From Bilabrum cf. latius (lineage: Eukaryota): a stretch of 64,000 bases of DNA. Where the stretch lies: positions 372,001 through 436,000 of the forward strand of contig OZ237739.1 in the NCBI GenBank assembly GCA_965178125.1, given 5' to 3'. Made by a program: the position numbers and the translations under genes. Of the stretch, positions 1 through 64,000 are shown piece after piece. The stretch's first letter is position 1. Each line of letters opens with the position of its first letter. The notes beneath the pieces are model-generated. The model ran no database searches and was not told the DNA's origin. It worked only from the letters and a program-made list of their open reading frames with translations.

Positions 1-3000
1 GCTGTTTGTACCCTTGGACTTGGAGGTCTGACTCCTCCACCGCAAAGAAGCCCGCCGCACCATGGCTGCCTGCTCGGCAACGGATGCCATCGACCCGTGC
101 GACTTGCCCGACACGTTCACGTCACCTGCACCGAAGAAGCCAGAGCCTGCCCCGACCGCACCAACTGCACCGGCTGGCGTGGTCCCCGCACCCGGTGTCT
201 TGGGCATCTTGGCGGCCATCTCCGCCGCCATCTGCTCCTCCTCGTCGGGGGCCTCGTGGTCAGCCTCCCTGTCCGCGTTGTCCACTGCCATCGCCACAAG
301 GTCAAAGTCCTCAAAATCGTCGTCGTCGCCATCGAGGACGATCGCGCCCTCTAGGTCTTGAGAGGCCAGCGAGCCACTCGCCACTGCCGCACTGCGGTCG
401 CCGTCAGCAGCGCCTTCAGGATCACGCTCTGGCACGCCCTCGAGACCCATGCTGCGGTCGTAGTCCTTCTTCAGCTCGGCCATCTCGTCCTCGTCGATGT
501 CGCCCTTGCCCTTGTCCTTCTCCAGGGCGTGCGTCGCGGCGCGCAGGTCGATCTGGCTCTGTCTCACCTGTTTCAGAAGGTTCGGTGCCACGTCACCAAC
601 GCTATGCTCGTTGGCGTCGCCGCTGTCTGTTCGGACGCGGTTGGCGATTGCCATGACAGCGGCATCCACATCATCGCCCTTGCCACCCTTGCCAACCTTT
701 TCTCCCTTAGCGTTGAAGCCCTCGGGCAGCACCTGGCTGCTGCGCTTGCCCTTGGAGGTATCCCCCCAGTTGCGGAAGAGAGGCAGACCATCGTGCGCCC
801 GGCAATCCTCAGTGTTCCAATATACCGTGATCGCAACACCCGCAGAAACCCAAATGAGCGTAGCAAGAATGACAATAACGTTGCTGTCATACTGCATGTC
901 ATTGTTCTCGCGAGACGGCAGCTCGCCGTCTTCGGAGAGATCGCCGACGTCAGGTGCATCTGCAGCATCGGGGATGGCCACGTGTGTGATGAGCAGAAGC
1001 CACGCGATGATGGCTGCGATCACAATCGGCAGGCGGGCAAGGTCGTGCGCGCGCTCGAACGGCAGGGGGTTCTTCAACCACGTGGCGATCGCCAGTGCAG
1101 TCAGTGCCAGCGTGCCGATGATGATTGCAGCCAGCAGCGACCTCGTCTGCAGGATCACGCCGCACCACACCACGGTCACCATCGCAGCTGCCAGCATCAG
1201 GACAAAGGCTGGCTTGAGCTGCAGCTCCAGGGCCCACTGGTTGACGGCCTTGAAGCGCTTGGCCTCGGCGATGCGCGCCTCGGAGTAGCGCGCGGTCTGA
1301 TCCTCGTTGGCGCGAGTTGCCTCGGCCACGATCAGTCTCTGCTTCACATCCATTGCCTCCCAATCCTCTTCCCGCTCGTCCCTGCGCATGCGAACGCTCA
1401 GGCCCCACGCCAGCGTGGGGATAAACAGGATCAGCGCGACCGCAGAGAAGAACACGCCAGTGATGTGCTCCCCGGTCCAGCACGACACCTGCTCGCACAG
1501 CCCCTCGGTCTGACGGAAGGTACCGAAGGGAAACCCGCACGTCCAGATCTGCATGAAGATGATCAGCATCGGCACAGGCAGAATCAGCAGGATCACGTAA
1601 GCAACGAACACGAAGATCTCCCACAGGAAAGGGTGCATGATGTCGCGGCCCTCCTCAGGCTGCGTGTCTGACCCCTGCGAGTCGTAGCCGTCTTCCTCAG
1701 AGTCCGTACCGGCGGCCTCTGCCTGCCTTGTCTCGTCCTGCGCGTCCGAGTCCGTCGATCCCAGGGACTGCATCCGGCTGCTAAACCCTGCGTTCGTCAC
1801 ACCCGTCATGCCAGTCACGCGGCTGAATTCCGAGTCCTTTCGGCCCTTGGCACCCCTGCCTCCCGTGGTTCCATCCTGCTTTCCACCCCAGCCTGACCCG
1901 CCCTTTTGGGGTGAGTCCAGAAGCGACTTGCCGTCGAAGGGATTGGCGGGACGATCCGCCTCATCGTCGGCATCATCGTCCTCGTCTTGCGAGTTGCTGC
2001 CCTCGGTCCTCATCTTGCTGAGCATGTCGGCCACGGCGTCTGTGCCGCCGGTGCCCGCGGGAGTGGCCTGGCCGTCCATGCGCGAGCCCGACGCAGTGCC
2101 ACCAACCCCGGCAGATTTGCCTGCCTCCGCCTTGTCGTCCTCCGTGTCATCATCGGTAAAATCCGAGCCTTCGTCGTAGTCCGAGTCAATCACGTTGCCC
2201 TGGGCGTCCAGGGGCTTTACTTTTGGCTCGTCAGAGTCAGTCTCGATGATCCCCCAGCCGTTCTTTTCGTCCTCGATCGACTGCCTGCGACGGCGCTTCT
2301 TCTTCTTCTTCGACTTCTTGTCTGCCTTCTCTCCCTTGCCCTTGTCGTCGAAGGCTTCCTTCTCTTCCTGCGCGGCGGAAGCACCAGCGGCTGTTGCTTC
2401 TACGTCTCTGGCCTATCTATCACCCTTCTGCGACTTGCCGAGCTCTGCAGCATTCTTCTTCTTCTTCTAGCGGCGCCTCGCCCGCGCTGCCTTTCGGTCA
2501 GATGGGGCCTCCACATCGGAACCGCTTTCGCCCTCCTTGTCCTCCTCGTCCTGCTTCTTGCGCCTGCGCCGACGAGGCTTCTTCTTCCGCTTGCCGGTCT
2601 TCCGCTTCTTGTTTTTCTTGTCCGACTTGCCAGCATGGCCCGGTTTCCCGCCAGCCGCTCCGCCGTCGTCACCCGCCTCCTCCGTGCTGCCTCCAGCCTT
2701 CTCCTGGCTGCTAGAGCTGCGGGATTTCAGCGCGTGGTACCCCGTTTGGTCCGCCGATGGTGGCACCGACTGAAGACCACGCGGCACGGCACCTGCTCGT
2801 CGGCTTGTAGACTGCTCCTCGTCGGAGTCCTCGTCAGAGGACGACTCGATGTCTTCCCCGTCCTCATCTTCCTCCCCCACCTTCTCTCGACGCTTGTAGG
2901 CGTGCACGACATCGAACGAAATGACAAACATCGCAAAAATGGTCAAGATGATGAACAGGACAAAGAACATCAGGTACGTTTCGTAGTTCCGCAGCCCGAG

Positions 3001-6000
3001 CAGAGTGAATGTCCTGATGGTGGCCTTCAATGGCACGTAGGTCAGCCAAGGGATGCCCTCGTGGAACAGTGGTGCTGCCAGCAGGAAGGCCCAGAGCACG
3101 AAGGCCGTGATCATAAAGATGTTCCTCCAATTGTAGTACAGCTGTTCCGTCGGGATGACCCACTCGTCAGGCTGCAGGTCGGTGTCTTGGTCGAACACCA
3201 AGTACAGCGCGAGCAGAACAGCAAAGACGATGGCGATGATCACCGTGAGCATGATGATTGCAGTCGTCTGCTGGTCCGAGGTATCCGCACGCAAAACGAG
3301 AGATAGGCTGAGTCCTTGGTCTGCCTCATCACAATTTTGGTCGATCAAAGCAGTGATGAGCTGCTGCTACGCTCGCTCCGTGCACGTCTGGTTGGCGCAC
3401 AGCCGTGTCTGCTGTAGCTCAGGGCACTCCTGCCCGCCGAATTGCGCTGGTACAAGCACGGGCCGAGTCCTGTTTTGGTTGCCACCGTCGCATTCGGCGC
3501 TGCAGTTGCCGTATGCGGTCCAGTTGCCCACAACGCAGTCAATCGGGCAAGGCTGTTCGTTGCACGAACGAGAGTCCTCCAGAGCCGGACAGTCCAGGGC
3601 CCCGTAGGCAGGATACACCGTAACGTTGCGGGTCCTGATCTGCGTCCCGTTACCGCACTCCAGGCTGCACTCACCCCAGCCACCCCATGCCGACACCTGG
3701 CACTGCTGCAGGCAGTGGCCGGTAGCACAGCCCTCGGGGAACGACGCGCAGTCAGCGGCCTGACAGAACGGATTGTCAAAACCAGGATCGCACTCGCACT
3801 GCCCGCCACCGGTGGCCGTGCATACACCGTTGCCGTTGCACATGTCAGCTGGTGCCGCCTCCGTGTCACATGTACAGCATGAAGGACCTGTCCAGCCAGG
3901 AGCACACTCGCACTGGCCGGGAGCAGGCGACGTGATGCTTGCGCAGCCGCCATTGCCACTGCACGAAATCGTCACGTCGCAAATCACGCCCACACTGGTC
4001 ACAGCAGTGCTCGTGACCGTCCGCCTGAAGCTGCGTGCTCCGACTGCGGTATCCTGCAGCTGTGTCGAGTGCCACTGCAAGAAGAGGTTGTGCGGGATCG
4101 ACTGGCCAGGCTGCACCAACGGCTGCACCTCGGCCGGCGCGATTAGTGTGACGATATCGTTCTCAGACACCTCTGGCATGAGGAAGCTGAGCACGTCAAA
4201 CTTGGGCTCAGCGGATTGTTGTCCCAGTGACAGGTCCAGGCCTGAGAGTACCTGGGCTCGCCTGCGCCCTCCTTCTGCACTCTACGAGATCGGGACGGCC
4301 TTGCGCGCGTCTCTATCAAACCGAGCCAAGAGCTGGCCAGTCGTGGGGTGTCGCGCCATACCGTCTGACAGCAGAGACCTGGCGATTCTGGACCCTCCAA
4401 ACTCTTCAATTAGTCTTCTCGAGCTGCCGTTGCTCGCCGGGGGCAACACGTTGAGCGAAGAGTTGCCAAATCCAGGGAAGTTGCCGAGATCCGTCGTGTT
4501 GTACAGATCAACGAGATCTTGCAAGGTCAAGTTCTTGGCAAATTCGGCCGTAACGTTCAACCGCTGCCCACCCAACGACCAGGTTCCGTTGCTCGATGCA
4601 ACAGAGGCATTCCCGGATGTGGTGTTGAGAGGACTGCGGTCAAGGCCAAGGTATATAGACGTCTCGTTCACGTCAATGGAAATGAAGCCACCTGGCACGA
4701 TCACAGCCAGTGTCACATCCTTGGCACTGTTCGTCAGGTTCTGAATCTGCGGCACAACATCAACAACGATGTCATACTTTTCATCAGTAGATATCTCGTC
4801 AGTCGGGAACCTGTCCACCGGCATAAGCTCCAGCGGCTCGAGCACAACGAGATCCGCAGAGAGTGCCTCCGCCGTCACTGGGGCGGTACCCACGCCAGCG
4901 AAGGTTCCTTTGACCGAGACCGTGTCACCTGACTGCACGCTTGCAGACACGAACGTGCGTAGCACGCCCGTTATCTGATCTGGTCTGGCGTTGTCCGTTC
5001 CTGCATTCAACACAGTGCACAAAGGTACTGTGACAAGGCTGCCTGTCGATGTCGAAGTCGCGGCGAGGGCTGTCGCGGGCAGTCCGCCGGCGCAGCTTGA
5101 AGTCACCGTCGCATTCGACGACATCGAGACTACATCCACAGGAACGAGCAGCCCAGGTGGGTTCAACTCGAACCGCAGCGTGGCGTCCAGAATTGTGGAC
5201 TCGGGCACAGTCGCCACGACGTACACATCAACGGTCTGGCCTGGCACCAGCTTCTAGTCGTCAGGAGTCTGCGAGCTCGCGTCAATTCGTACTGCCACGA
5301 CGGGCTCTGCAATCACAAACTGCGGGTCTGCACCCACGGTACCTGCAACGGAGCCGGCAAGCGGGGCGACCGCGATTGGTTGGGTCCTGTACGTCATCGC
5401 GGCGTTCGGGCGGATGGTGGAGCTCGCCTCCGCGGAATGCGTGACGCGCGCAATTACGCGAATTACTACCGTTTCACCGAGATCAATCGTCGGGATTTCC
5501 GCGACCAAGCCGCGGCTGGGGTCCACAGAGACGTCCGTCCTCGCGAAACTTTCGTTGAATACAAGGCCTCGTCCTTCCACACGCACCTCGACTAGCTCAA
5601 AGAGCGGGCTGTTGTCGAAGGCCAGTCCGGTGCCATCAACGTAGCTGTCATCCGAAATCGCCACATCGTGCATCTGAGATGTGGATGCAGCGTCGTGCGT
5701 AATCGTGACCGAATATTCTACCAAGTCACCGGCATCCACCGCCACTGCAGGTGCCGGTGAAGTACGGGCCTGTACCACCGTTGCAGCGACCGGCAGCACG
5801 TACGTGACGGTTGGAATCGCAACCGTAATCTGACCGGCTGGCACAAACCTGGAGGTCAGATTCACGCTGCCACCTCCTAGCCTGTGCCCCGGTAACAGAG
5901 ACGGCAAAGTATCAATCTCAACGAGGACATTCACTTGGAGTGTCTCGGTGGTGTAATCCTGTCCGGAATTGAGCACACGTCTGCTAGAAAAATCGACCGG

Positions 6001-9000
6001 GGCCGATACTCTTCTCCAAGCCGCAGGACCCTGGTTGTCATCGTCTGAGTTTGTGATGTTGCACAGGTGAATTGAAGCTTGGCGACCGGAGCCTGACGTT
6101 TGCATGCTCAAAGCTACCGCCTCCCATGAGCCACACGAGGATGACAGCAAGGGCGAGTTCGGCTCGATCGAAGCACCTATGACCCTAATTGGACCAGCAG
6201 CAAGCTGTACAGAAATATCAGCAAGCTCCAGTCGTCCTTCTGGAAGAGCGATATCGAACGACACGTTGAAGCGCTACCCTGCTGCAAAATCTAGTGTGCC
6301 AGGCGTGGTGTCTCCAGTGTCAATGTCAACGCCGAGAGCTGGAGATCTGATCCCTATCGAAGGGTTCGACGAAGCTAGGGTGGCATCAACGGTAGCCATC
6401 TTGTCCTTGGGGTGGCTTCCGAACTCCACTTGCAGCTTCGGGCTCAGCGTGAAACCTCCTGCGTCAGGGCCGCTGCCGGCCTGCACGTCAGTCGTCAGCT
6501 TGATCACGTATTCCACCTTCAAGTCATCGCCGACTGGCAATGGCCCTAGCAGATTCAAGATGCGCACATCCTGCTGGCTCGGATCAACCGACTACCTTGT
6601 GCTGCTATTCCGCAGGTAATGCACAGTGCCATTGATGCTGACACTCACCACTTCGTACTGCCCCACGCCAAGGGTGTCGTCCGACACAATGACGGAGTAT
6701 GCAGCCGAGGTGGACCTCAGATGGTGCGAGATCGTGAAATTGTACTCGATTGTATCCCCTGCATCCACGTTGGCCACTGCTCGCGGCAGCACCTCGAAAG
6801 CGTCAAGCTGAGCCACTCCAATGTCCGCACTGGCTGTAGAGGACAGCACAACCACGCCTGATGAGCTTGGGGTTGGCAGACCAGGAGCATTCGTAGTGTA
6901 CGCCAGAACCGATGTGTCACTTGTGTAGTCAAGGGACAGGTCGACCGTCTAACCTTGCACGCTGCTGTTCGAGCTCGAGAGCACAGTAGCCGTGTATACG
7001 AGTCGCAAGACATTACCTGGACCGCTGGCATTCAGGTTCCGGCTGTTCCTCAAAGACCCAATATTTACGGCGAATCCAGACAAAGTTGGCCCGACCAGAC
7101 CAAGAGAACCAACCAGTTGGTTCAACTAGGCTGCATCCACGGCATCTAGATCGTCATCGAGTGAAGTCAAATCCGAAGCAAGCACAGCTGGGGCATCAAA
7201 CACTGGGACCCCAGGCTGGCCATTGCTCAAGGCAGTTCCCGCTCCCTGCATCGACCCGCCCGTCGCTGTGATGGTCCTGTTGGCGTTGTCAACTTCCACC
7301 AGAGTGAAGTTGTACAGCAGTCCCGCCGGCACAAGCGAGACGTTGATAAGCCCGGCTGCAGAGATACCCTCGGGTACGATGATGTCTACGGTGATAAATA
7401 AACTCGATCCGATGGCAGCAACACCGTCAATGCCAGATACGCCGTCATCCGAAACGGTAACGGTTGCCTGAGGGGGCTTGACCTCAATTTCGTTGCTAGG
7501 AATCAGCGGGGACGAGTAGTTCTTGCGGGACTCTGAACTGCCCGCGGGAACGGAAGACCACGTCACGCGCGTAGCCGGACTCACCACCGAGCCAGCAACA
7601 AGCAAGGCACCCATCTAGATCGTATACTACACATCCAGAATTTCGCCCGGAAGCAGGGCAGGGATCACCACAACCCCATCGGTGCCAAGCAGCGGGTCTG
7701 ACTCGTTGATCGGCTGGAGCACGCCATCGATTCGCACTGTCAGGTTCACGACGGAGTACACTCCAGTCACCGACACCGGGTCTCTGATAACGATGTCGTA
7801 CGCTGGCACGTCCGCGCCCGTGTTGTTCAGCCCAACATCAATGCTAACAAGGTCGAATGCATCGACTCTACCCTGGGGATCGGCGCCGCCACCCGAGGCT
7901 TTCGTTGCCTATACGACTGGCGTGGACAGCTCCGACTCGATCAAGGTGATACCATCAGAGACAAAGCACCGCGGTGCCTCCAGACCAGTTTCTACGGTCG
8001 TATTCAGCCTAAGTGTGGACCCCGGGCTCAACTCAGCCAGCGAAGAGTCGCTCACCACCCGTGCCACAAATACAAACTGGACGAGGCCTGCACCATCCGG
8101 AGCGCCAGAGCTGACCACGAGGGGGCAAGAGGAGAATCCAGTCACCTTTCCAGCCGATGATAAAGTCTCAGTTCCAATCAGTTGATTGAGACTCAAATCA
8201 GACTCGGTTGCATTCGCTTGCGGCTGTTCAAGGCCGCAGAATTCGTAGCCTCCGCGCGTCTCCGAGCGCCGAAGGACTGCCTCGCTAGCCAGCTCTACGG
8301 CCGATTCGTTGTAGATAATCCTATCTAGCCTGAATCCATCCATGAATCCAGGACGAGACGCCTCGAGAAGCACGGAAAGGTTGGCAGAGATGCCACGCGG
8401 AAGATCAATGGAAACCACATGCACTAGCTGCTGGCCAAACGTGGCTACCAACGTAGAGGCAGTCAAGTTGTCGCTTCCAAGCGTTGCATCAACAGTGGAA
8501 CCCCGGAGCGAGCCTGCAGTCTGGTTTGCGACCTGCTGCAGATCATCAAATCCAGGGCCAGGATACACGCGGGACTGCTCGCCAGAGCCCGGGTAGTCCC
8601 TCCAGGTTCCATCAAGACCACCAGGGTGCAGCGTGCGAACGTCCGCTTGCTGAACTGTACCAACCCCGTTGGGATGCGACGAGTATCGGACGCCAATACT
8701 GGTCTTGATCGGTTGGTTTGGCTGCACGTGTTGCTCAACGGCATACGTGATTTCGAATGGAGTGTCGTCCGAGACGGCCAGCTCATCCAGCATAAACAAA
8801 CTACCGGTGCCAATGTCAGTGCTGTAGTTTGACCTGTAGAAACCTGCGACTTCGGAGAAAACCTCGACTCCACCCAAAACTACACGTACAACCCTGAGTA
8901 AAGGATTCGTCCGGTTGAGTGCCTCGTCGAATAGCTCAATGCCAAATGCGTTGCTCGTCGAGTTGCTTGTGTGATCGATGGTGCCAGTCACAGCAAATCT

Positions 9001-12000
9001 ATCCCCAGCCTGGAGCTGGGACAAGTCTTGGCTAGTCACCAGGACCACCTCCTCGAGCTCTGGCTCCACGATTTCGAGTACGTTGATTCCTGACGAAACT
9101 GAGCTGCCGAACGAGACGCCTTGCCCAAAAGAGGCAAATTTAGCGGTAGCTGTGATGTCTGCACCAGCTGCAACCTGCGAGTCATCTTGCACAAGCGCTC
9201 TCGTCACAACTGTCAGCACGCCGGGAGGCACTGCCCCGTTCTACGTTCCGGCGTTGTTACGTAACGTGCACATAGATACGTTGAATACACCTGTCGTAGT
9301 GTCAAACTGAGATTCTCGCCTTAGAATGGCAGCTGTGAGCGGCTCCTCAGCCCCACTAGCAACGCCGCATAACATCGTGTAGTTGCCAGAGTCGATTTCA
9401 AGGGTCACAACACTTGCGTTGAGTAGGCTGCCGCTCGGACCGAACACAATCGAAAGCGACGCGTTGCCATACGTACCCGCTGGGAGCACCATGGTGGAAC
9501 GTACCTCGACTACGCTGCCCGCAGTTGCACTTGACGTAACGCCATTTCCGCCCAGTGTTGCGATAGTCGTATTCAGCTGTGAGCCCAGCGTAGCCACGGT
9601 GGGATTCTCGTCGGCGAGTGCTGTGTACGCCCGGGATAGCGGTGCGGCCGCCACACTCTGGTACCTGACACGAATTTCCGGCCGGAATACTGACGGCAAA
9701 GCTGCGGTGGTCAGGATTCGAAGCGACACTCCGACATCAAGCGCCTCTTCCACTGCCAGTTCGTCCAGCTCAATGAGCACCGTAGAGTCGCTGATGTTGC
9801 CGACAATCCGAGCCGCGCTCATGTTCGCTGTGGAGCCAACGAACTCGTAGAACTATCCAACCAAAGGACTTGCATCGAAGAGTTCCACAGCATAGGCATT
9901 ACTTGCCGATGCAGAGTCATGCAGCACGGAGAGGTTAAAGGTTATCACGTCACCGGCAGCCAAGTCGCTGAAACTGAGTTCGTCAAATGGACTGAGCCGC
10001 AACGTGGGCTCCTGCACCGTAAGATTACTAGACACAGATGATACCGACTCGGTCGCTGCACCTCCGAGCGAGTCGAAGGTAAGGTTCATCGCGACGCGGT
10101 ACTCATCAGATGCTGTCGACCCGTTCCTGTTCAGCACTAAAAGAGGGATCGAAATCTCGATGAACTCCAGGGCTGTGTCATTCACATTTGCGTTGATGAC
10201 ATCTCCCAAACTGATTGATGCGGTGAGACCCCCATCGCTGGTGACAAAGGCAGATGCGATTGCCTCCAAACTGCTATTGCTAGTTCCAATCTGCACGTCA
10301 GCGGCAAAGGAAGTGATCACTGGCCGGATGCTTGCATCCAGTAGCCCGTTCGGAGCGCCGATGGCATCCACTGGACTGCCAGCAGACAGGTTCGCCGAAA
10401 GTCCGGCAAACACAGCAAACTGGTTTGGAAGAATTGCAGCCTCCAGCACCACGTCACTGAGTCGGCCCTGGGGCACACGGACCCGCGCGGTGACGTACGC
10501 AACGGAGCCGATACTCGCAACATCTAAGCTCCTGCCATTGTCCCGAGAAGCTTCTACTCGAGCAAACACGGCGGGTGCATCAATGCCTTCCACGGCGGTT
10601 GAGAATGTAACGTTGGGCCCGGCTCGCGTAGCTACGTAGTCTCTTGCCCTGCCAGTCGCGGGGTGCGTAAAGAACCGTACCAAAGGAGCAGTCTCAAACG
10701 ACGAGTATAACAGAACGTCAGGCGTAAATTCAACGATATACTCCACCTACACGAGGCTCTTGTTCGCGGGCAAACGATCGATGGTTCCAAAGACACCATC
10801 TGTACCGGAGCTGGTCAAAAACCTCAAACCACCAGTCGAATTCAACGCGATGTCCACGCCGTCCACGCGAAGTGCGACAACGGTATACGGAGCTGATGCC
10901 CCCAACAACGTAGAATCAACTAATTGAACTCCAAACGCATCCGATGACGCCTAAAGACCAGCGGTAACGTTGAAAAACACAGAAACCCTGTCGCCACCTC
11001 CTACGGTCGTCTCTAAGGCAAACGATCCAGATTGATCCAGTTCAGGCTATCGTACAATGAGAGTCTCGTTCTAAACAACTGGTGCACCGACAAGAGTGCT
11101 TGCGTTAAGGGTGGCAGTCAAGATTGAGACCACGTTACGAGACACTACCGACGCATTCAGCACCAGCAGCTCCACCACCACCTCCACACGCTCGTCCGTC
11201 ACACCGTCGTCCACTCCGCTGTTCCGCACATCCCCGAGACCAATCGTTGCAACGCCACTCACAGAGTCTACCACGCTGCCGCTCACCAACGCGCCAAGTG
11301 CAACACGCGTGCCGTTCGACAACGTGCCGCTCAGCACACCGCCTGACCCACTGCTGGGGCTCACAGACACCACGCGCTGCACAGACACCACGTCAGGACG
11401 GCTCACGCTCACGGACAGGGACGCGCCGTACAGCGTGCCCTCAGCCACTGACAACGACACTGTCGCCAACACCGTCTGGCCTGCCACAATGTCCGTGTCC
11501 ACCACCGTCGCCGTGTCCGTCGCAGTCGTCAGCACCATCGACGGACCAGGCACGCTCACCACTGGATCCGATGCTGCCGCCTCGCTGTAGTTGCGGCCCC
11601 CGCCGTACTCGCTGCCCGGATGAGAGCTGTACTGCACGCGCACCGCCGGCACAATGTCATCCGACGATGACACCTCGTCCGTCAGTCGCACGCGGTACAC
11701 CAACACAGAGCTGTCCGAGACCACAGGAAGCACAGCCCACTCGCCATCGCTGCCATGACCAGACACAGACCCGCTCACCCCAGACTGGTACGTCGTCACG
11801 CCATCCACGCGCACCTCCTCCACCACATAGTCACGACCAGGCAGAGTCACGTCCCGCACACGAGCCTCATACGCAGGACTGAACGTCGCGCCCTGAGTCG
11901 CGTTCAGCACCACTACAAACTGAGCCACATCCCCGCCATCCGCCACCAGCGTCAACGGACTCACGCTCACGCTCAGCTCGGGCTCCTGTAGCACGATCGT

Positions 12001-46707: not shown

Positions 46708-47561
46708 ATGGCAGCAGCAAGCAAAGACGCAGAGGTAAGTCCAGCTCCACATACTGGGCAGAAGGCGGAACAGGGCGCTGAAAAAAAGGGCGAAGCAAAG
46801 CCAGATCCCGCCCCACGACCTGTTGGAGTGCCTGACAAGGAGTTTTATTTGAGATACTAGTGAGAACACGCAGTAAAGCGCACCAGATGATTTTATGTCG
46901 CATATTTAATACTTTGGGAGCACAAAATGCCTCTTATGTCTCTATCGCAGCGTTGGCCATCGCGGCCGGTTCGGGCACGAATTCTTAGAGATCCAGTTCT
47001 GCTCGGATGGCACGTTCAAGTATGCAAACAACAGCTAGTACCGGCATGATAGTATGATTAAGAAATCTGGTGAGATGCGGATCCATTTTGGTGACTTGCT
47101 TCAGAGTTTGTTGGCGGATACAGCGTCACAGCTTGGTGAATCAATGAGCCTTTCTCTTGCAGTAAGGGTATCCCCAGCTGTGGTTGCTGAGGTCTAGCGA
47201 ATAGTCGATACAAGCGAAATTCTCAGGTGAGTTCTTCTTGGATGTCGCGCGGTTTTGGTATGAGAGCGGGACGGGCGATTTCATGCTGGAGTGCCACTGG
47301 CAATGCCTTTTTCCCCCTGCTTGCAGCTTTGATGACGAGAATTGGCCAGAACCAAACGAAGTAGGGCGATAGGAGCTCGAGATTATCACAGATTAGGAAC
47401 ACGTCAGTTTTGTGTGTGCTAAAATTGGTTCAATGGTCGATGTCAAAGGCAGCAAGGATCCCAAGGGCATGGAGAAGCTGTATTACCTTGTATAGGATCT
47501 ACGCTGTTTAGCTTTCAGCTTGATTTCGGCCCACTTCAAGATCAAGCCAATACCGTAGTGA
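46708..47561 (+). CDS. MAGO: Mago nashi (exon junction complex core), 4 exons: 46708-46859, 46951-47069, 47163-47226, 47327-47561; six in-frame TAG
   Basis: The spliced product reads ...[34 protein letters not shown]...[55 protein letters not shown], then TGA. This is collinear with canonical Mago ([22 protein letters not shown]...GRQELEI...[24 protein letters not shown]). The three introns are GT(GAG)...CAG: 46860-46950, 47070-47162, 47227-47326. Not in the ORF track. Confidence 0.96.
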
Positions 47562-47775
47562 CGCTGGCCCCTTCAAGATCTGCACTTGGCTGGTGTAGAT
47601 GCGGTGAGACTTGAGCAAGTTGGCGGAGCCGTCGTTGAATACTACACTACACTAAAGCTATACGTTATATTCATTCAAAACATACGCGCCACGCACTAAT
47701 GGTGCGTGGTTTGTGGTCGCATTTTGACGCACTCAAACTAGTGCAATTCGGGGGGCTCACACACAGGACGATCGG

Positions 47776-53700: not shown

Positions 53701-56700
53701 CTCAATATCGACGAAGTCGTTGCCCTGCAAAGGAGACGCCAGTATGTCGCACAAGGGGATGCACACGCCGCCAGCAGCACCGGCACTGGTCCCCATTAGG
53801 CCACCGCCACGGATAGTGACTCCTGGCCTGGTATCATTCAAGTTTTCGTGTAGTCCCGCACACGAAGAAGAAGCATTCCCGCCTCTTACATCGATCCCTG
53901 CAATCGAGAAGTTGTACAGGGCATCGGAGGGCTGTGTGTCTAGGCAGACAGCCGGATCGACTGTTGACCCAGCAGGAACTCGAACCGTCACCTTCACATC
54001 TACTGAGCCAGTCGGCGCGGCTACGCCAGGATTTCTAGAGGAGTCATCCGGCTCAATTGATACGGCCACAGTCGGCTGCGCGATCTCGACCAGTCGACTA
54101 CCATCGGGTGGCAAGGCAGTTCCAGTCACGTTCCCTTCTGGAACATTCGCCCACGACACGACAGGAATTGCGGAGTACCCTGTACCGGCAGCCACAGAGT
54201 CTTCCAGGGTCACGCTGTAAGAGACTGACACGGTTGCATTGGGAGGTAGCACGGGTATCACGAATGCCTCTCCCGGTTTTGTGCCCGGTAGCACCGAAAT
54301 CGGCACCCCATCGACTAGCACAACGACGTCATTGATGGATGCAAGACCGCCAGCCAGCATACTGTCGGATATGCTCACATTGTACAAACGGGCTGACGAC
54401 TTGTTGCTGGTCGCCAGCGCAATGCTCACATCGTACTTATCTCCAGCAACGAGGCCGCCGCTCCCCCCAGTGGTGTTGTCAGCCGGGACGATTTCAAAAG
54501 AAATGAAGGCAACATCAGGCCGAACCACCTTGACTTCAGTCGAGTTCGGAGCCGAGACACCCCCGCCATTGTTTTGACGCAAACCTGCGCTCCCGATGAA
54601 AGGCGGACTTTCACCTCCATCGCCATCGTCTGCAAGCTTGCCTTGCAGGCGAATGCGCAAGGACCCGGTCGGGGATGTGGACACCAATGAGCACAGGTTA
54701 AGTTGTGCGGCAGTTTGTGACACAATGGAGAGACCGCCACTATGGATTGCACCACTGGCACAGTCTCCTCCTTCCTCTGATCTTCCTGCGCCCGAAACAC
54801 CATCAGCAACTACATCCACGATTGTAAGCCCCTTCGGCAGCAAGCCCTACGCCGCGAGGATATCTAAGATACCACCAGGCATAGTGCCAGCGGGAATATG
54901 AATCTCTACCTCGAAGTCTATGGTTTGACCAGGAACAGACTCTCCAGGGATGGATGCCCCAGGCCCGACTGGCCGAACGCTAACGCTCATAGTTGCGCGT
55001 CTCGCAAACCTCGTCGCATTCTTGTCTGCCTCCTCAAAGTCCACGTAGATCCGAACCTAACCGGGATAATCGAAAGGCGAAGGGCCGGTCGTCAGCCGCC
55101 TCGAGTGGTACTGATCGATGGTTGGCGTGCCAAACTCATCAACCGCAATCGACGGATGAGAGTAGAAATCGAGATCAAAGGCCGGTCTATACCTGCTACC
55201 CAGCTCTAATCCACTAGTCACCTTGAGCCGCAGTGTTACGTTGACCCGACCCTGCACCGCCTGCAGGGCCACTAGTGGACCGGTATCGTTGTAAAGCGGC
55301 GAAGAGTGTGACTCGTTCCCGATAATCGTCTCGTTTCTGGTGATGCCAGAGCCGAGCTACCCGCTCGCGTCGAACAGCGTTACCGCAAATGCCGTCGAGC
55401 GATTGACTTCAATGAAAAGGTCAACTACGATGTCGTCACCCGGAACGATCTCAAAGTCTGGTGACGTCACATTTGTGATAACGAAGTCAATGTCAGGCTC
55501 CACAACCTGCAGGACAGCATGCTCCACATGCGAGGAAAAGGCCAACTCGGGGCCTCCTACGACCGATGCGACGATTGCTTGGCCATCCTTCGTTGCATTC
55601 GCATCGGCGACCTGCACGGTTGCTCCGACCTGCAGGGTCATCGGAGCCGCCAGCAGCAAGTCGCACATGTCAAACCCTTGACCCACCTAAAGCTTGTTGC
55701 CTATCGACCGTCTTGACTGGATCAACGTACCTGATCCTGGTCGGCAAGGCGGTACTGGGCCCACCGTATCGATATCATCAACAAACAAAATGCTCTCTTC
55801 GGATACGTTTAGCATCATGTCTATGTAGGTTCCCGACAGGACACCGGCGGGTAGCAAAATGTCTGTTGCGATCCTCATGGACGACCCCATAGAAACAGAT
55901 AAGCCTCCTATGGCATCATCTGTTGCGAATGTCGAATCGAAGGAAGGGAACGCAGACTCTACTTTATCATCAACCGCAATGAGGCTCAATGCTTCAGTCT
56001 AAGGGTCACACGGCGAGGTCTAGTACCGAAGTGAAACACGCAACGTGATGTTTGAAGTGAGCGGAATGAGCGAACCTGCCTCAAGCATCACTCGCACAGC
56101 TATGCTTTCATTCGGACTCAGCGAAGCCAGCGTTCCATTGCTCCCATTGAAGTCGACACGCATTGGAATTAGACCTTCAGGCCCGTCCACAGAATCGTAG
56201 ATGAGATCCACTCCATACGCAGAGCCATCCCCCACATTCATGATCTCAAACATGGTCAACAATTCGGAGCCGGCACTTACGTTGCTACTGGGGTCAACAG
56301 TTATTGATCCGTTTACAGCAAGCACAGGTTTCACAAGCTCGATATAGGAACCAGATGCTGCGGCTTCAATCCGCCGCCCCTCATCGTCTTCAGCGCTAAT
56401 GGAAGCTCTAATAGAAAGCTGTCCAAGAGACGTCGAGTGCACAACGAATGGCCATTCAACCCTGATGTAAGTTGCATTCGCTGTTGGAGCTGAGGCGATG
56501 CTGCTTACATCCCCGAGGCGAAGTACCAGGCTGTCAGTACTCACAACCGGAGATGTCAAGGCGTCCTCCAGTTGGGAGCCATGGACACTGCTCGATGCCG
56601 AGGCACCCGACAGCGTTAGATTCGGAGGCATGACACAGTCTGAGTACTCCAAGAAGTTTGCCGCTCCAAGTAGCGGCGCCATCAGGGACTGGTCAAACTG

Positions 56701-59700
56701 GATCTGGACCTGAAGCTACCTGCTGAGCCCGCCAGGGATGCGTACAAGCGTCTGCATAGTCACAGCATCTCCAGTACCTACACTGAGTACGGGCTTAATG
56801 CTGCTATAGTCATCGATTCGCACCACCGAATGTGCAATCGCAAACCCCCCACTTCCAGGAGACGATGTTTCAATATCAAACTGCTAGTCAGCACCTTGCT
56901 CGACACGATGCTGTGTCCCATTTCTTGGTTGAGACGGGTAGAAAGACACGGCGACTTCCGATGAAGAGTTGCCGAGCAGCGGTACAAAAGGTGATAGCAA
57001 AACCTCCACCTCAATTTGCACACTTCCTCCTAGAGGCAGCCTCGCGATTTCAAGCAAGGCGATTGGGTCTGATGGGTCGATATCAATACCCAGAGCACCA
57101 TTCGAACTCACCAATCGAATTCGGACGAGGCTGTAGGGGCTATCGACTCGACCAAGAGCCAGATCTACTACCGAGATATTAAAGACATCAGCTGCACTGA
57201 ACGCATCGTGGCTGATGGTGATATTCCATGCCACAATATCTCCACCCACAACCCTTGACGCCACCGAGGGACTACTGGAAACTCGCAAAGAGCCCCTCAC
57301 CACTTCGAGCTCAACAGATGACGAGAGGTTCACAGCATGCTCAGATATCAACGTAGCCGATGCATCTACTGCAACAGTAAATACATTCGGCGGTAAGTCC
57401 TATGCCACTGCATGGAGCACGACCTCCACGCCCTCCACAGTCAGCCCGTTGTCCGTGCCGGCGTTCGTCACGTCGCCCAGCTGCACCGTCGCCGTGCCGG
57501 CCGCCCCGTCCACGCTCCAGTGGGACGAGTTCAGGCCGCTCAGCGCGCCCGATCCGCCCGCAAGCGACGACGTCACGTTCGACCCGGACCCTGCCGTGGC
57601 TCGCACTGACACCACCTCCAGCAGCTCCAGCACGTCCGCTCGAGACAGGCTCACGCTCACCGACGACCCCACCAGAGTGCCTTCCGCAAGCTACAGCACC
57701 GCCGTCAGCTCCACCACCTGCCCCACCGCCACGCGCCCGGGACCCGCCACACTAGGATCCTCCACGCTCGCGTTCCACACCAATCCAGGACCAGGCACTG
57801 ACACGGCCGTCGACTCAGGCGCCTCGGAGCTCTCGTTCCGGCTCACCCCGTACGAGCTGCCCACCACCGGGTGCGAGCTCCACTCCACCCGCACGTCCGT
57901 CGGCACCGTCGTGCCAGATGCAGCCGCGTCCGTCAGACGCACGCGGTACACCAGCACAGAGCTGCTCACCACAGACTCCAACACGGCCCACTCGCCGCTC
58001 GTGCTGTGCCCGATCACCGACCCGCTCGTCTCGCGGCTGTACCGCTCCGTCCCGTCCACCACCACAGACTCCACCACGTACGACGGGCCCGGCAGCGACG
58101 CGTCCACCAGCCGCACCCAGTACGCCTGGTTGTATCCCGCGCCCTGCGTCGCGTTCACTACCACCACCATCTGCACCACGTCGCCTCCGTCGCCCACCGC
58201 GCTGGCAGGACTCACAGACACAGACACATCCGGCTCCAGCACAGACAGGCTCGCCGACTCGGAGCTCATCGTCTCCTGCGTCACGAATGCCGCATCCACA
58301 TCGATGCTGGCCCCGCGAGACACAGCGCTCACGTTCTCCACGGTCGCCTCCAGCACCACCTCCAGGATCTCCCCGGCGCCAGACACGCCCACGTCCCGGT
58401 CCACATTGCGCAGCACGCACAGAGGCGCCCGGTACCACGACGCCAATGGACCGCCCAGACGCACCACAGACAGCCCGGACAGGTCATCCAGATACGACTG
58501 CACGCCCGACCCGCCCGACCCCACACCGCTGCAGCTCGACACCAGCACGCTGCTCGGCGACGAGTCAGTGCTGCCGTTCACCACCACGCGAGCCGACACC
58601 ACCCGACGCAGACCGAGACCACTCACCAGCGACGATCCCGGCACAGACACGTTCAGCACCGCATCGCTCATGCGGGCTTCCGGCAGCGCCACGCTCACGT
58701 TCACAGTCACCACGCTGCCCACCACCACGTCCAGGCCGCCAGATGTCGCGCCGTCCGAAGACACAGACAGGCTCAACGATGGCGACCCCACGCTCAGCGA
58801 CGATGCAGACGTGGTCGATACCACGGACTCGTTTCGGGACTCAGACGGGCTGGGATGGCTGCCCCACCGCACGCTCACGAAAGGCACAGGGTACGATGCC
58901 CCGGCCTCCACGTCCGACGACACAAGCACCTCCCACTGCACGGCCAGCACCTGACCCGCTCCCACCTCGCTCAGCACAAGCACCGCGTCGGCCAGCGACG
59001 CAGACCCGCCTGCCACCAGCGACCCGTTCACCCACACGCGACCCACAGAGTACACCGGAGCCCCCGTGGCCGTCAAGCTCACGTTCGCCAGCACCGAGTC
59101 CGCGACCACCACGTCAAACACAGACGCGCCCGCCGACGCGACGGGCCGCAGCACAGTCGAGAACAACAGAGAGTCCCCGCCGTCCACGTCAGATAGCACC
59201 GACGGAAGCAACACATCCGGCCGAGACAGGCCCTGCCCCGCCACCGTCAAAGTCACGCTCGAGTTCGTCACGGCAGGCACCACGTCCAAGCTAGACACAG
59301 ACGCGATCACGCTAGACGTCGACCCGGCCGCCGCGTCCCGAAGCACGCGCCCGCCCACCACCACCTCGATGGACTCGCTCACGCCATCCAGCGTGTCGTT
59401 GTTCACCATCGTGCACGGCCCGATCACCACCTCGCCCGTGCTGGCGTTCACGCTCGCGTGCGGCGCGCTGCCCAGCAGTGACAGTGGCGTCACCAGCACG
59501 CCGCCGCACACCACGCGCAGCTTCGTCAGAGACGGCCCGCTCACGGACACCACCGAGATGCTCGCAGGGTCCAGCACGCCGTCGGGCCCGCCAGGACGCA
59601 CGCGGATCACCACGTCCCTCGCCGTGCCCGCTGGCAATGCGGCGGCCACCACCACCTCCACCGACTGGCCGCCCACCACGCTCGACGGACTCAGCGACGA

Positions 59701-62700
59701 GCTCAGGCTGCTGTCCGGCGTGCGCGCGTACATCTGCACCGCAGGATCCGCGTGCTGCATCAGCACATCCGCCTCCGCTGCCACGCTCGCGTTGCGGGAG
59801 TCGCCCACATCGGGGTGCGACCACCACCGGGCAGACAGGCTCGCGTTCACGCTGCCGCCAAGGTCGATGCTCGGCAGAAGCTCCACCTCCACCACCACCG
59901 ACAACGAGTCGCCCACGTCCAGCCGAGGCCACACGATCACCGTGCCTGCAAGGCTCTCTGCAGACACCCCGGATGCCGACGCAGATGCCGCGTCCGCTCC
60001 CGCGCGACGAGACCCGCCCTCGCTCCACGCCGGCTGCACCACGCCGTTCACCCACACGCCAGACACCACGTACCTGCCGTCCAGCAGCGTCGAGTCCAGC
60101 AGCGTCACGTTGAACACAGACGCGGCCGATCCGCCCGCATGCCCCACCGTCATGGTGAAGTTCAGCTTGTCGCCGCCGTCCGTGTCCGTGAAGGCCACGG
60201 GGCTCACGCCGGGCGCTGCCAAAGACCCCTCCGATACCGTCAGCGTCACCACGCGAGACACGGCCTCGCCGCCGCTCAGGTCAGACCCAGACACAGACGC
60301 CGTCGCATCCACGCCCACGCCGCCCTGCGCCGCCGCCGTGTTGCGGACCACGCCGCGCAGCACGATCTCCACGCCCTCCACAGTCAGCCCGTTGTCCGTG
60401 CCGGCGTTCGTCACGTCGCCCAGCTGCACCGTCGCCGTGCCGGCCGCCCCGTCCACGCTCCAGTGGGACGAGTTCAGACCGCTCAGCGCGCCCGATCCGC
60501 CCGCAAGCGACGACGTCACGTTCGACCCGGACCCTGCCGTGGCTCGCACTGACACCACCTCCAGCAGCTCCAGCACGTCCGCTCGAGACAGGCTCACGCT
60601 CACCGACGACCCCACCAGAGTGCCTTCCGCAAGCTACAGCACCGCCGTCAGCTCCACCACCTGCCCCACCGCCACGCGCCCGGGACCCGCCACACTAGGA
60701 TCCTCCACGCTCGCGTTCCACACCAATCCAGGACCAGGCACTGACACGGCCGTCGACTCAGGCGCCTCGGAGCTCTCGTTCCGGCTCACCCCGTACGAGC
60801 TGCCCACCACCGGGTGCGAGCTCCACTCCACCCGCACGTCCGTCGGCACCGTCGTGCCAGATGCAGCCGCGTCCGTCAGACGCACGCGGTACACCAGCAC
60901 AGAGCTGCTCACCACAGACTCCAACACGGCCCACTCGCCGCTCGTGCTGTGCCCGATCACCGACCCGCTCGTCTCGCGGCTGTACCGCTCCGTCCCGTCC
61001 ACCACCACAGACTCCACCACGTACGACGGGCCCGGCAGCGACGCGTCCACCAGCCGCACCCAGTACGCCTGGTTGTATCCCGCGCCCTGCGTCGCGTTCA
61101 CTACCACCACCATCTGCACCACGTCGCCTCCGTCGCCCACCGCGCTGGCAGGACTCACAGACACAGACACATCCGGCTCCAGCACAGACAGGCTCGCCGA
61201 CTCGGAGCTCATCGTCTCCTGCGTCACGAATGCCGCATCCACATCGATGCTGGCCCCGCGAGACACAGCGCTCACGTTCTCCACGGTCGCCTCCAGCACC
61301 ACCTCCAGGATCTCCCCGGCGCCAGACACGCCCACGTCCCGGTCCACATTGCGCAGCACGCACAGAGGCGCCCGGTACCACGACGCCAATGGACCGCCCA
61401 GACGCACCACAGACAGCCCGGACAGGTCATCCAGATACGACTGCACGCCCGACCCGCCCGACCCCACACCGCTGCAGCTCGACACCAGCACGCTGCTCGG
61501 CGACGAGTCAGTGCTGCCGTTCACCACCACGCGAGCCGACACCACCCGACGCAGACCGAGACCACTCACCAGCGACGATCCCGGCACAGACACGTTCAGC
61601 ACCGCATCGCTCATGCGGGCTTCCGGCAGAGCCACGCTCACGTTCACAGTCACCACGCTGCCCACCACCACGTCCAGGCCGCCAGATGTCGCGCCGTCCG
61701 AAGACACAGACAGGCTCAACGATGGCGACCCCACGCTCAGCGACGATGCAGACGTGGTCGATACCACGGACTCGTTCCGGGACTCAGACGGGCTGGGATG
61801 GCTGCCCCACCGCACGCTCACGAAAGGCACAGGGTACGATGCCCCGGCCTCCACGTCCGACGACACAAGCACCTCCCACTGCACGGCCAGCACCTGACCC
61901 GCTCCCACCTCGCTCAGCACAAGCACCGCGTCGGCCAGCGACGCAGACCCGCCTGCCACCAGCGACCCGTTCACCCACACGCGACCCACAGAGTACACCG
62001 GAGCCCCCGTGGCCGTCAAGCTCACGTTCGCCAGCACCGAGTCCGCGACCACCACGTCAAACACAGACGCGCCCGCCGACGCGATGGGCCGCAGCACAGT
62101 CGAGAACAACAGAGAGTCCCCGCCGTCCACGTCAGATAGCACCGACGGAAGCAACACATCCGGCCGAGACAGGCCCTGCCCCGCCACCGTCAAAGTCACG
62201 CTCGAGTTCGTCACGGCAGGCACCACGTCCAAGCTAGACACAGACGCGATCACGCTAGACGTCGACCCGGCCGCCGCGTCCCGAAGCACGCGCCCGCCCA
62301 CCACCACCTCGATGGACTCGCTCACGCCATCCAGCGTGTCGTTGTTCACCATCGTGCACGGCCCGATCACCACCTCGCCCGTGCTGGCGTTCACGCTCGC
62401 GTGCGGCGCGCTGCCCAGCAGTGACAGTGGCGTCACCAGCACGCCGCCGCACACCACGCGCAGCTTCGTCAGAGACGGCCCGCTCACGGACACCACCGAG
62501 ATGCTCGCAGGGTCCAGCACGCCGTCGGGCCCGCCAGGACGCACGCGGATCACCACGTCCCTCGCCGTGCCCGCTGGCAATGCGGCGGCCACCACCACCT
62601 CCACCGACTGGCCGCCCACCACGCTCGACGGACTCAGCGACGAGCTCAGGCTGCTGTCCGGCGTGCGCGCGTACATCTGCACCGCAGGATCCGCGTGCTG

Positions 62701-64000
62701 CATCAGCACATCTGCCTCCGCTGCCACGCTCGCGTTGCGGGAGTCGCCCACATCGGGGTGCGACCACCACCGGGCAGACAGGCTCGCGTTCACGCTGCCG
62801 CCAAGGTCGATGCTCGGCAGAAGCTCCACCTCCACCACCACCGACAACGAGTCGCCCACGTCCAGCCGAGGCCACACGATCACCGCGCCTGCAAGGCTGT
62901 CCGCAGACACCCCGGATGCCGACGCAGATGCCGTGTCCGCTCCCGCGCGACGAGACCCGCCCTCGCTCCACGCCGGCTGCACCACGCCGTTCACCCACAC
63001 GCCAGACACCACGTACCTGCCGTCCAGCAGCGTCGAGTCCAGCAGCGTCACGTTGAACACAGACGCGGCCGATCCGCCCGCATGCCCCACCGTCATGGTG
63101 AAGTTCAGCTTGTCGCCGCCGTCCGTGTCCGTGAAGGCCACGGGGCTCACGCCGGGCGCTGCCAAAGACCCCTCCGATACCGTCAGCGTCACCACGCGAG
63201 ACACGGCCTCGCCGCCGCTCAGGTCAGACCCAGACACAGACGCCGTCGCATCCACGCCCACGCCGCCCTGCGCCGCCGCCGTGTTGCGGACCACGCCGCG
63301 CAGCACGATCTCCACGCCCTCCACAGTCAGCCCGTTGTCCGTGCCGGCGTTCGTCACGTCGCCCAGCTGCACCGTCGCCGTGCCGGCCGCCCCGTCCACG
63401 CTCCAGTGGGACGAGTTCAGGCCGCTCAGCGCGCCCGATCCGCCCGCAAGCGACGACGTCACGTTCGACCCGGACCCTGCCGTGGCTCGCACTGACACCA
63501 CCTCCAGCAGCTCCAGCACGTCCGCTCGAGACAGGCTCACGCTCACCCACGACCCCACCAGAGTGCCTTCCGCAAGCTACAGCACCGCCGTCAGCTCCAC
63601 CACCTGCCCCACCGCCACGCGCCCGGGACCCGCCACACTAGGATCCTCCACGCTCGCGTTCCACACCAATCCAGGACCAGGCACTGACACGGCCGTCGAC
63701 TCAGGCGCCTCGGAGCTCTCGTTCCGGCTCACCCCGTACGAGCTGCCCACCACCGGGTGCGAGCTCCACTCCACCCGCACGTCCGTTGGCACCGTCGTGC
63801 CAGATGCAGCCGCGTCCGTCAGACGCACGCGGTACACCAGCACAGAGCTGCTCACCACAGACTCCAACACGGCCCACTCGCCGCTCGTGCTGTGCCCGAT
63901 CACCGACCCGCTCGTCTCGCGGCTGTACCGCTCCGTCCCGTCCACCACCACAGACTCCACCACGTACGACGGGCCCGGCAGTGACGCGTCCACCAGCCGC
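47776..64000 (-). CDS. Giant adhesin-like protein 2, paralogue of gene 1 (>5,400 aa in window; N-terminus beyond the right edge): Ig-like repeats, EGF-like, 2x TSP1, multi-pass TM; requires TAG=Gln
   Basis: The main minus-strand fragments from 63993 to 48165 share one frame, and the ~23 breaks are all TAG. Ends TGA at 47778-47776. The C-terminal region aligns with gene 1 (NWRN, PVPML.IF.QIWTC.FPFG, W.LELQ, NP.PF.RAHDL.RLPI). A small intron near 48230 (GTGAGT) cannot be excluded. Confidence 0.87.
48380..50775 (-). other. EGF-like, 2x TSP1 and multi-pass TM region of giant gene 2
   Basis: CNGNGRC...CECDAGWTGDSC, DCAVTQWTSWSTCTEECNGGEQTRTR and DCIVGNWTEYGDCSESCGGG, followed by ~9 hydrophobic segments matching those of gene 1. 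Confidence 0.85.
57417..64000. repeat. Tandem coding repeat, period 2943 bp (981 aa), >2.2 near-identical copies, continuing off the window
   Basis: Equivalent TAGs at 57691, 60634 and 63577. The two 974-aa ORFs are near-identical. Confidence 0.95.

Follow-up and report, generated by a model that had tools for sequence, protein, structure and literature searches.

Evidence for a nuclear genetic code with UAG alone reassigned to glutamine in a GC-rich, intron-bearing eukaryote

We propose that the window investigated here (the whole stretch of 64,000 nt, with a GC content of 0.600) is read with a nuclear code in which UAG is an ordinary glutamine codon, UGA terminates translation, and UAA is not a sense codon, but either a terminator in rare use or a codon with no assignment. 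We give this reading a probability of about 0.86. The source would be a eukaryote whose nuclear genome is GC-rich (0.60), compact, and intron-bearing. This type of code, the 'table 15' pattern, is already known, and what looks new is the lineage, which apparently was not yet known to have it.

Five genes were found in the window (Table 1). With TAG read as sense, two long frames open on the minus strand, at 1..39693 (13,231 codons) and at 47776..63999 (5,407 codons). The standard code splits both into pieces no longer than 980 aa, and the longest ORF of the window under the standard code is an antisense artefact. The part of gene A inside the window has 13,257 codons in the final model, with EGF-like and two TSP1 domains detected by Pfam. 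Gene D (5,408 codons in the final model) also carries TSP1 and EGF domains according to Pfam, and the two paralogues are 22 to 43% identical. No relative of the gene A N-terminus was found in genome and viral contigs, an exact 40-base scan of viral and metagenome contigs with the window start gave no match, and the same was true for the gene D membrane region searched among longer proteins. Gene B is 1,111 codons long and closes with TGA at 43533-43535, its two TAGs being codons 116 and 992. Gene C, of 922 codons, contains one TAG (codon 548) and closes with TGA at 43698-43696. The fifth gene, Mago nashi, has 190 codons in 4 exons, including 6 TAG, and its final codons are TAG-TGA (47556-47561).

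Table 1. Genes and tandem repeats located in the 64,000-nt window.
Feature	Position	Strand	Structure and evidence
Gene A, giant secreted or membrane protein	1..39956	-	exon 1 39956-39779 (ATG at 39956, signal peptide); intron 39778-39594; exon 2 39593-1, continuing past the window edge
Gene B, alpha-L-rhamnosidase of bacterial type with signal peptide	40203..43535	+	Pfam Bac_rhamnosid6H, 1.9e-42
Gene C, Pus7/TruD pseudouridine synthase	43696..46584	-	exon 1 46584-46352; intron 46351-46229; exon 2 46228-43696; Pfam TruD, 8e-40
Mago nashi gene	46708..47561	+	exons 46708-46859, 46951-47069, 47163-47226, 47327-47561; PDB Mago nashi matches, 2.8e-29
Gene D, paralogue of gene A, 5' end beyond the window	47776..63999	-	terminal TGA 47778-47776
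Tandem repeats in gene A, 99% identical, period 2940 nt	11154..25733		self-BLAST; inflate the raw TAG count
Tandem repeats in gene A, 99% identical, period 972 nt, about 6.5 copies, 2 TAG per copy	27158..33468		self-BLAST
Tandem repeats in gene D, 99.6% identical, period 2943 nt	57416..64000		self-BLAST

Introns are present in three of the five genes (A, C, and Mago nashi), ranging from 91 to 185 nt and with 5' ends GTRAG. In contigs from runs X5 and X7, which belong to two studies, all five introns are absent with exact GT..AG borders, and these contigs are therefore RNA; none of the runs listed is on record as RNA, which is no evidence about expression, X5 and X7 are labeled as RNA by guess, and contigs drop rare variants. 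The gene A junction, with GT..AG ends, and the gene C junction were observed in contigs of both runs, and RNA contigs confirmed the three Mago nashi introns as GT..AG joints. The final gene models were built with the introns confirmed in this way. A prokaryotic or phage origin of the window was rejected because of the spliceosomal introns and the presence of Mago nashi.

Together, the final models of the five genes contain 20,888 codons, with 106 TAG, no TAA, and 4 TGA, all of them terminal, besides 106 CAA and 475 CAG, TAG thus making up about 15% of the Gln codons. The preliminary description had reported only TAG, never TAA, as internal stops over some 20,000 codons of five genes, the use of CAA for Gln, and TGA at the four visible gene ends, and the final models agree with it on all three points. 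In the raw frames, 73 TAG with neither TAA nor TGA were counted in gene A, 2 TAG in gene B, 1 in gene C, and 23 in gene D, the count for gene A rising to 74 TAG, still with no TAA or TGA in frame, in the final model. These numbers come from a sample of five genes, and 97 of the 106 TAG fall in the two repetitive paralogues, A and D. The repeats, whose periods are above the 500-nt limit of Tandem Repeats Finder, were located by self-BLAST, and for a non-redundant set we kept one or two units of each 99%-identical tandem repeat of genes A and D. The collapsed count is 14,994 codons with 81 TAG, no TAA, and 4 terminal TGA. UGA is the terminator in this window: it closes all four visible ends (43535, 43696, 47561, and 47776) and is never internal, and RNA contigs end 70 to 120 nt past the terminal TGA. 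TAA closes none of the four ends, and the window cannot show whether it is a working stop, as the preliminary description had already stated.

The alternative that survives best, although we consider it improbable, is an ambiguous, context-dependent code of the Condylostoma or karyorelict type, in which UAG would be Gln internally and a stop near mRNA 3' ends. The sample is limited to four gene ends, and one of them leaves room for this reading, since Mago nashi ends in KPIP-TAG-TGA and its last TAG could be read as the stop; among 55 homologues, 29 end at KPI, 11 exactly at KPIP, and 9 one residue after KPIP. However, a lone TAG is found at none of the four visible ends, and no bias in context is seen around the in-frame TAGs, the following base being G in 25, A in 22, C in 18, and T in 16 of the non-redundant cases, similar to the base after CAG. 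Moreover, the TAG at codon 168 of the 190 in Mago nashi, about 150 nt short of where the mRNA contig stops, still falls on a nearly invariant Gln column (see below). In the known ambiguous codes, those of Condylostoma and karyorelict ciliates, every reassigned stop is also found within reading frames; in the window genes, neither TAA nor TGA ever is.

An ordinary code with both UAA and UAG as Gln (NCBI table 6 type), where TAA would remain unseen through GC bias, was also considered. It would agree with the GC-rich genome and with the preference for the G-ending codon in every A/G pair, and two papers describe UAA and UAG as coupled in almost every nuclear code known (PMC5304391; PMC11687900). 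The preliminary description had named a strong GC3 bias as the possible cause of the missing TAA, and this explanation does not hold. GC3 is only 0.67 in the window genes, and A-ending codons still make up 15 to 26% of the two-fold A/G pairs, with A/(A+G) of 0.217 for CAA/CAG, 0.152 for AAA/AAG, 0.257 for GAA/GAG, and 0.147 for TTA/TTG. From the ratios of these four pairs, 13.8 to 27.6 in-frame TAA would be expected in 14,877 non-redundant codons if TAA were a synonym of TAG, and none was observed (P(0) from 1e-6 to 1e-12). Codon bias therefore does not explain the absence of TAA. The triplet itself is common off-frame, with 28 and 27 TAA (and 263 and 262 TGA) in the two other frames of the same strand in gene A, and 18 and 11 TAA in those of gene D.

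A replicate was provided by a syntenic metagenome contig (L001) that is less GC-rich (GC 0.53, GC3 0.57). Its 2,764 aligned codons include 19 TAG, but no TAA or TGA, against an expectation of 6.3 to 10.6 in-frame TAA (P(0) from 0.0018 to 2.4e-5, that is, P <= 0.002). No gene ends are visible in this contig. TAA is not synonymous with TAG and is absent in frame beyond codon bias in two related genomes, which makes a table 6 type code very unlikely and upholds the decoupling of UAG from UAA put forward in the preliminary description.

The meaning of TAG was investigated in three sets of alignments. In Mago nashi, the TAGs at 47370-47372 and 47493-47495 (codons 127 and 168) occupy columns with Q in 61 of 61 and 60 of 61 homologues, respectively, and both face Q as well in the human and fly proteins of known structure. 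The other 4 of the 6 TAGs are in variable columns (N; K/R; N/D; and the C-terminal tail). The alignment of the orthologues with the syntenic contig has 2,732 aligned columns with 55 to 61% identity, and Gln is found in 10 of 31 columns where TAG faces a residue (8 CAG and 2 CAA), against a background of about 3.6% Gln. The remaining 21 columns have T (5), E (3), R (3), and others, while standard Gln is itself conserved in just 48% of columns. In a maximum likelihood assignment over these orthologues, Q (lnL -77.9) is ahead of K (-91.8), E (-100.7), and S (-101.8), the advantage over the second being 13.9. The likelihood test with paralogues A and D, confined to their better alignments, points in the same direction over 48 unique sites, with Q at -129.7, S at -135.6, and E at -135.7, a lead of 5.9 lnL. 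When A-D alignments at all identities are considered, the residues opposite TAG, led by S, V, and A, mostly mirror the background composition. Judging from the Mago nashi columns and the orthologue test, TAG specifies glutamine, as the preliminary description had claimed.

It is hardly probable that UAG encodes an amino acid other than Gln, for instance Glu, Lys, Ser, or Leu. Glu is indeed found at the site of the second TAG of gene B in a relative (P0074) that is 92% identical in the one protein compared, some of the orthologue columns have E or T as mentioned above, and codes with UAG as Leu, Ser, or Glu are described in other lineages (PMC11687900). Nevertheless, the two nearly invariant Gln columns of Mago nashi and both likelihood tests favor Q, with Leu and Ser being disfavored in the three comparisons, and two of the TAG pairings are with CAA, a codon two positions away from TAG. 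Pyrrolysine and selenocysteine were rejected because the TAG positions align with Gln.

Over the TAG-bearing exons, the contigs of runs X5 and X7 have zero differing letters from the DNA, with the TAGs unchanged, and one RNA contig spanning 40189-43649 covers gene B with zero letter differences. The TAGs are not subject to RNA editing, and the genes are not pseudogenes. The alternative that the TAGs are never translated as TAG, because they are edited to CAG or belong to pseudogenes or assembly errors, is negligible: nothing in its favor was found, considering also that spliced RNA from two studies matches the DNA, that TAG is the sole one of the three stops found in frame, that conserved sequence continues 3' of the TAGs, and that the syntenic contig repeats the pattern at different sites, with no TAG column in common with the window genes.

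By analogy with other UAG-only codes, as presented in PMC5304391, UAG would be decoded by a tRNA-Gln(CUA) able to read UAG and not UAA, a single mutation away from tRNA-Gln(CUG). By the same analogy, eRF1 would have largely lost the recognition of UAG, keeping that of UGA and probably that of UAA. The decoding of each UAG must be almost complete, because gene A carries 74 of them: an efficiency of 99% per codon would give 48% of full-length product, and one of 90% would give 0.04%. The tRNA scans of the window and of the syntenic contig revealed no tRNA gene, an Rfam scan of both gave no match, and the eRF1 gene is not within the 64-kb window.

As for the position of this organism, the Mago tree (45 rows, 154 columns) leaves the window sequence on a long unplaced branch, with the best identity, 65%, to an oomycete. 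Stramenopiles and rhizarians are the top matches in a word-limited search with part of Mago nashi, in which not all eukaryotes were sampled. The Pus7 homologues, 9 matches with 24 to 32% identity, include fungi and an amphipod. For the rhamnosidase of gene B, the closest named match is in a prokinetoplastid transcriptome, with 33% identity, and it is uninformative for placement. An independent origin of UAG as Gln is likely, on indirect arguments that set the organism apart from the known lineages. We lean slightly toward a new lineage, neither ciliate nor fornicate, that independently reassigned UAG alone to Gln in a GC-rich genome, with UGA as the working stop and UAA perhaps nearly or wholly unused, and with at least three members. 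The candidates are the window organism, the 92%-identical relative (one protein compared), and the relative with 55 to 61% identity and the same gene order.

Regarding the known codes, PMC5304391 and PMC11687900 indicate that UAA and UAG nearly always change meaning together in nuclear genomes. Codes with UAA and UAG as Gln are listed in PMC11687900 for many ciliates, Hexamitinae, Streblomastix, Ulvophyceae, and Amoeboaphelidium. The code proposed here resembles them in the capture of a stop for Gln, presumably via a mutated tRNA-Gln, and in the use of UGA as terminator, but lacks the in-frame TAA that defines them (14 to 28 expected). The preliminary description loosely gave Iotanema spirale and a few ciliates as examples of UAG-only Gln; PMC11687900 names Iotanema, Protocruzia tuzeti, and two origins in phyllopharyngean ciliates, besides codes with UAG as Leu and as Ser.

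I. spirale (Fornicata) is an anaerobic gut flagellate represented only by a transcriptome, with UAG as Gln, UAA and UGA as stops, and 104 of 119 gene ends in UAA against 15 in UGA (PMC5304391). As in the window, UAG alone is reassigned, to Gln, UAA and UGA are never in frame in the data reported, and UAG accounts for a minority of the Gln codons (about 8% in Iotanema). On the other hand, Iotanema mostly ends its genes with UAA, and four TGA in four ends would have a probability of about 2.5e-4 at its UGA share of 12.6%; moreover, the present data come from a GC-rich genome rather than a transcriptome. Phyllopharyngean ciliates and P. tuzeti, according to PMC11687900 and PMC10089648, have UAG as Gln in most of their genes and keep UAA as the main stop, with UGA as the rarest (1.7 to 13.1% of genes) and a GC content of 27.4 to 53.6%. 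They share the meaning of UAG with the window and differ from it in GC content (0.60), in the TGA at all four ends, and in the introns of 91 to 185 nt. The GC content and stop usage observed here fit none of Iotanema, Protocruzia, and the phyllopharyngean ciliates. The rhizarian exLh (UAG as Leu) and Scotinosphaera (UAG as Ser) also have UAG split from UAA in nuclear genomes outside the ciliates (PMC5304391; PMC11687900), but with different amino acids, both disfavored here. We found no report of a nuclear code with UAG as Gln in a GC-rich or stramenopile-like protist in the full-text literature, whose coverage leaves out most subscription journals and supplements.

Each split between UAG and UAA is a test of why the two codons usually change together. 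The UAG-only exceptions reported in these papers have UAA as the main stop, and the ciliates among them (GC 27-54%) are less GC-rich than the window. If the proposed code is correct, AT pressure is not required for such a split, and we would have instead the capture of a stop codon under GC pressure, together with a natural eRF1 able to tell UAG apart from UGA, and perhaps also from UAA. In this case, the public genome and the spliced transcripts from several studies would allow tRNA(CUA), the eRF1 motifs, and the stop usage to be read directly. Gene callers using the standard code shatter genes of this kind, and the rhamnosidase of a relative was recorded as three fragments.

The window (64 kb, GC 0.600) comes from a compact eukaryotic nuclear genome and contains five genes.

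Genes found in the window of Bilabrum cf. latius
Gene	Position	Strand	Product
A	39956 down to 1, continues past window edge	minus	giant protein, >13,257 codons
B	40203-43535	plus	alpha-L-rhamnosidase, bacterial type (Pfam 1.9e-42)
C	46584-43696	minus	Pus7/TruD pseudouridine synthase (Pfam 8e-40)
Mago nashi	46708-47561, four exons	plus	Mago nashi (PDB matches, 2.8e-29)
D	63999-47776	minus	paralogue of gene A (22-43% identity), >5,408 codons

When TAG is read as sense, frames of 13,231 and 5,407 codons open up, which the standard code splits into pieces of 980 aa at most. The final models of the five genes contain 106 TAG, no TAA and 4 TGA in 20,888 codons, the TGA being exactly the four gene ends listed in the preliminary description, whose claim that TAG is the sole in-frame stop and that genes end in TGA is borne out. 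Since extensive stretches of both A and D are tandem repeats with 99% identity (periods of 2940, 972 and 2943 nt), these were collapsed before counting, leaving 81 TAG, no TAA and 4 terminal TGA in 14,994 non-redundant codons. In the two off-frames of gene A on the same strand, TAA occurs 28 and 27 times and TGA 263 and 262 times. The in-frame TAG pattern is real and far beyond chance. An antisense artefact accounts for the longest standard-code ORF of the window (28222-33480, plus strand, 1,752 aa): it faces the 972-nt tandem repeats of gene A, and gene callers using the standard code would be led to the wrong strand.

Genes A and D encode paralogous giant surface proteins, each with 99%-identical tandem units of 2.9 kb. 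In gene A, a signal peptide is followed by repeats spanning more than 10,000 residues, and the C-terminal parts of both proteins carry an EGF-like domain, two TSP1 domains and a multi-pass membrane region whose loops are highly charged. In Pfam, the repeats matched only below threshold (DUF11, 21.9 bits, cutoff 24.6). A search among longer proteins with the membrane region of gene D gave no homologue. Gene B combines a eukaryotic signal peptide with a bacterial-type enzyme; only a minority of its 3,222 matches carry a name, the closest of these being a prokinetoplastid transcript (33% identity), and the gene may derive from an old horizontal transfer.

The cleanest test of the amino acid is Mago nashi, with six TAGs. 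Codon 127 (VGR-TAG-ELEI) falls in a column with Gln in 61 of 61 homologues and codon 168 (YLV-TAG-DL) in one with Gln in 60 of 61, while the remaining four occupy the tail or columns that vary. Most Gln codons of this gene are TAG (6 TAG, 3 CAG, no CAA). A profile-free rhamnosidase search revealed relatives, namely a fragment with 92% identity (P0074) and three others (P0082, P0084 and P0115) located on the same contigs. One of these contigs, L001, is syntenic with the window, with its gene A orthologue and its rhamnosidase on opposite strands (GC 0.53; protein identity 55-61%). Along 2,732 aligned columns, 31 place a TAG of the window or L001 against a residue: Gln in 10 (8 CAG, 2 CAA), Thr in 5, Glu and Arg in 3 each, Pro and Ser in 2 each, and Asn, His, Val, Phe, Asp and Gly once each. 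With substitution frequencies drawn from the same alignments, the best assignment is Gln (lnL -77.9, against -91.8 for Lys and -100.7 for Glu); alignments of A with D point the same way less strongly, with Gln ahead by 5.9 lnL. Two observations speak against Gln: one TAG site is Glu in P0074, and most individual TAG columns are non-Gln. Standard Gln codons are themselves kept in just 48% of columns. No column shares TAG between both genomes, where arithmetic gives an expectation of about 1.4, which fits free synonymous turnover. UAG is thus shown to be a general Gln codon, with a share of all Gln codons of about 15% for the window and 17% for L001.

Central to the finding is the decoupling of TAA from TAG, which withstands the obvious objection. 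At the GC3 of the window, only 0.67, codons ending in A are by no means rare (CAA/(CAA+CAG) 0.217; corresponding shares for AAA 0.152, GAA 0.257 and TTA 0.147). A TAA synonymous with TAG should occur 13.8-27.6 times in 14,877 non-redundant codons, and none is observed (P(0) from 1e-6 to 1e-12). The less GC-rich L001 (GC3 0.57) replicates the result, with 19 TAG, no TAA and no TGA in 2,764 aligned codons, against 6.3-10.6 TAA expected (P(0) <=0.002). In-frame TAA is therefore selected against; it is not a Gln codon, being either a terminator or an unassigned codon. All four visible gene ends in the window are TGA, L001 containing none. UGA terminates and UAA is excluded from frames, and the UAG-only Gln code proposed in the preliminary description is strengthened by the amino-acid evidence, its replication in a relative and confirmation at the RNA level.

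This last comes from contigs of two public runs from different studies (X5 and X7), from which five introns are absent: the three of Mago nashi, the 5' intron of gene A (39594-39778) and the Pus7 intron (46229-46351). Because all five are missing at exact GT..AG borders, and X1, a DNA run, is colinear with the window, these contigs are spliced RNA. Neither RNA editing nor gene decay nor a special sequence context explains the TAGs: over TAG-bearing exons no letter of the RNA contigs differs from the DNA, and the bases that follow TAG show no preference (G 25, A 22, C 18, T 16). Given 74 TAGs in gene A, decoding must be nearly complete: by arithmetic, 48% of products would be full-length at 99% efficiency per codon and 0.04% at 90%.

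By the reasoning in PMC5304391, CUA is the only anticodon that pairs with UAG and leaves UAA unread. A tRNA-Gln(CUA), a single mutation away from tRNA-Gln(CUG), would accordingly decode UAG, and eRF1 would no longer compete there; neither gene is present in the window or L001. Mago nashi ends in KPIP-TAG-TGA (47556-47561), and its homologues end in KPI (29 of 55), KPIP (11 of 55) or KPIP plus one residue (9 of 55). The final TAG may be a relic of the ancestral stop, read through to the adjoining TGA, or may indicate that UAG still terminates to some extent.

The UAG-only Gln pattern itself is already known. PMC11687900 lists such reassignments in Iotanema spirale, Protocruzia tuzeti and, twice, phyllopharyngean ciliates, besides UAG-only changes to Leu (phyllopharyngean and rhizarian) and Ser (Scotinosphaera). 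In Iotanema (PMC5304391), genes mostly end in UAA (104 of 119; UGA in 15), and at that UGA share four TGA ends out of four have a probability of about 2.5e-4 (arithmetic). In phyllopharyngeans (PMC11687900 and PMC10089648), UGA ends the fewest genes of all stops (1.7-13.1%), and GC ranges over 27.4-53.6%. The window, at GC 0.60 and with TGA at four of four ends, differs from these lineages in GC and stop usage, which are indirect arguments. In the Mago nashi match list by shared words, oomycetes (68-72% identity) come first, followed by a eustigmatophyte, chlorarachniophytes, a bicosoecid and a cercozoan; in the tree the sequence forms a long, unplaced branch, and the window has no good phylogenetic marker. 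Full-text literature that includes few subscription journals yielded no report matching this organism. An independent origin of the code is plausible, at about even odds or slightly better. What makes the case interesting is the combination of a UAG-only Gln code with high GC and UGA termination, in an organism with public genome and transcript data.

The RNA contig ends bracket single genes (40189-43649, 43620-46577 and 46696-47647), hence 3' UTRs of about 70-120 nt. The rhamnosidase and Pus7 genes are convergent; their contigs share about 30 nt at the 3' ends (43620-43649), and just 160 nt separate their stop codons, a sign of a very compact genome. In X1, GC-rich low-complexity parts of Pus7 (45270-46566) are matched by pieces of 18-31 nt from other contigs; the resulting joint from 45828 to 46544 was judged spurious and attributed to repeat cross-matching rather than to a rearrangement. 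Finally, the gene A orthologue of L001 has a 118-nt GT..AG intron (4565-4682, minus strand) at a place where the gene of the window has none, a case of intron gain or loss between relatives.
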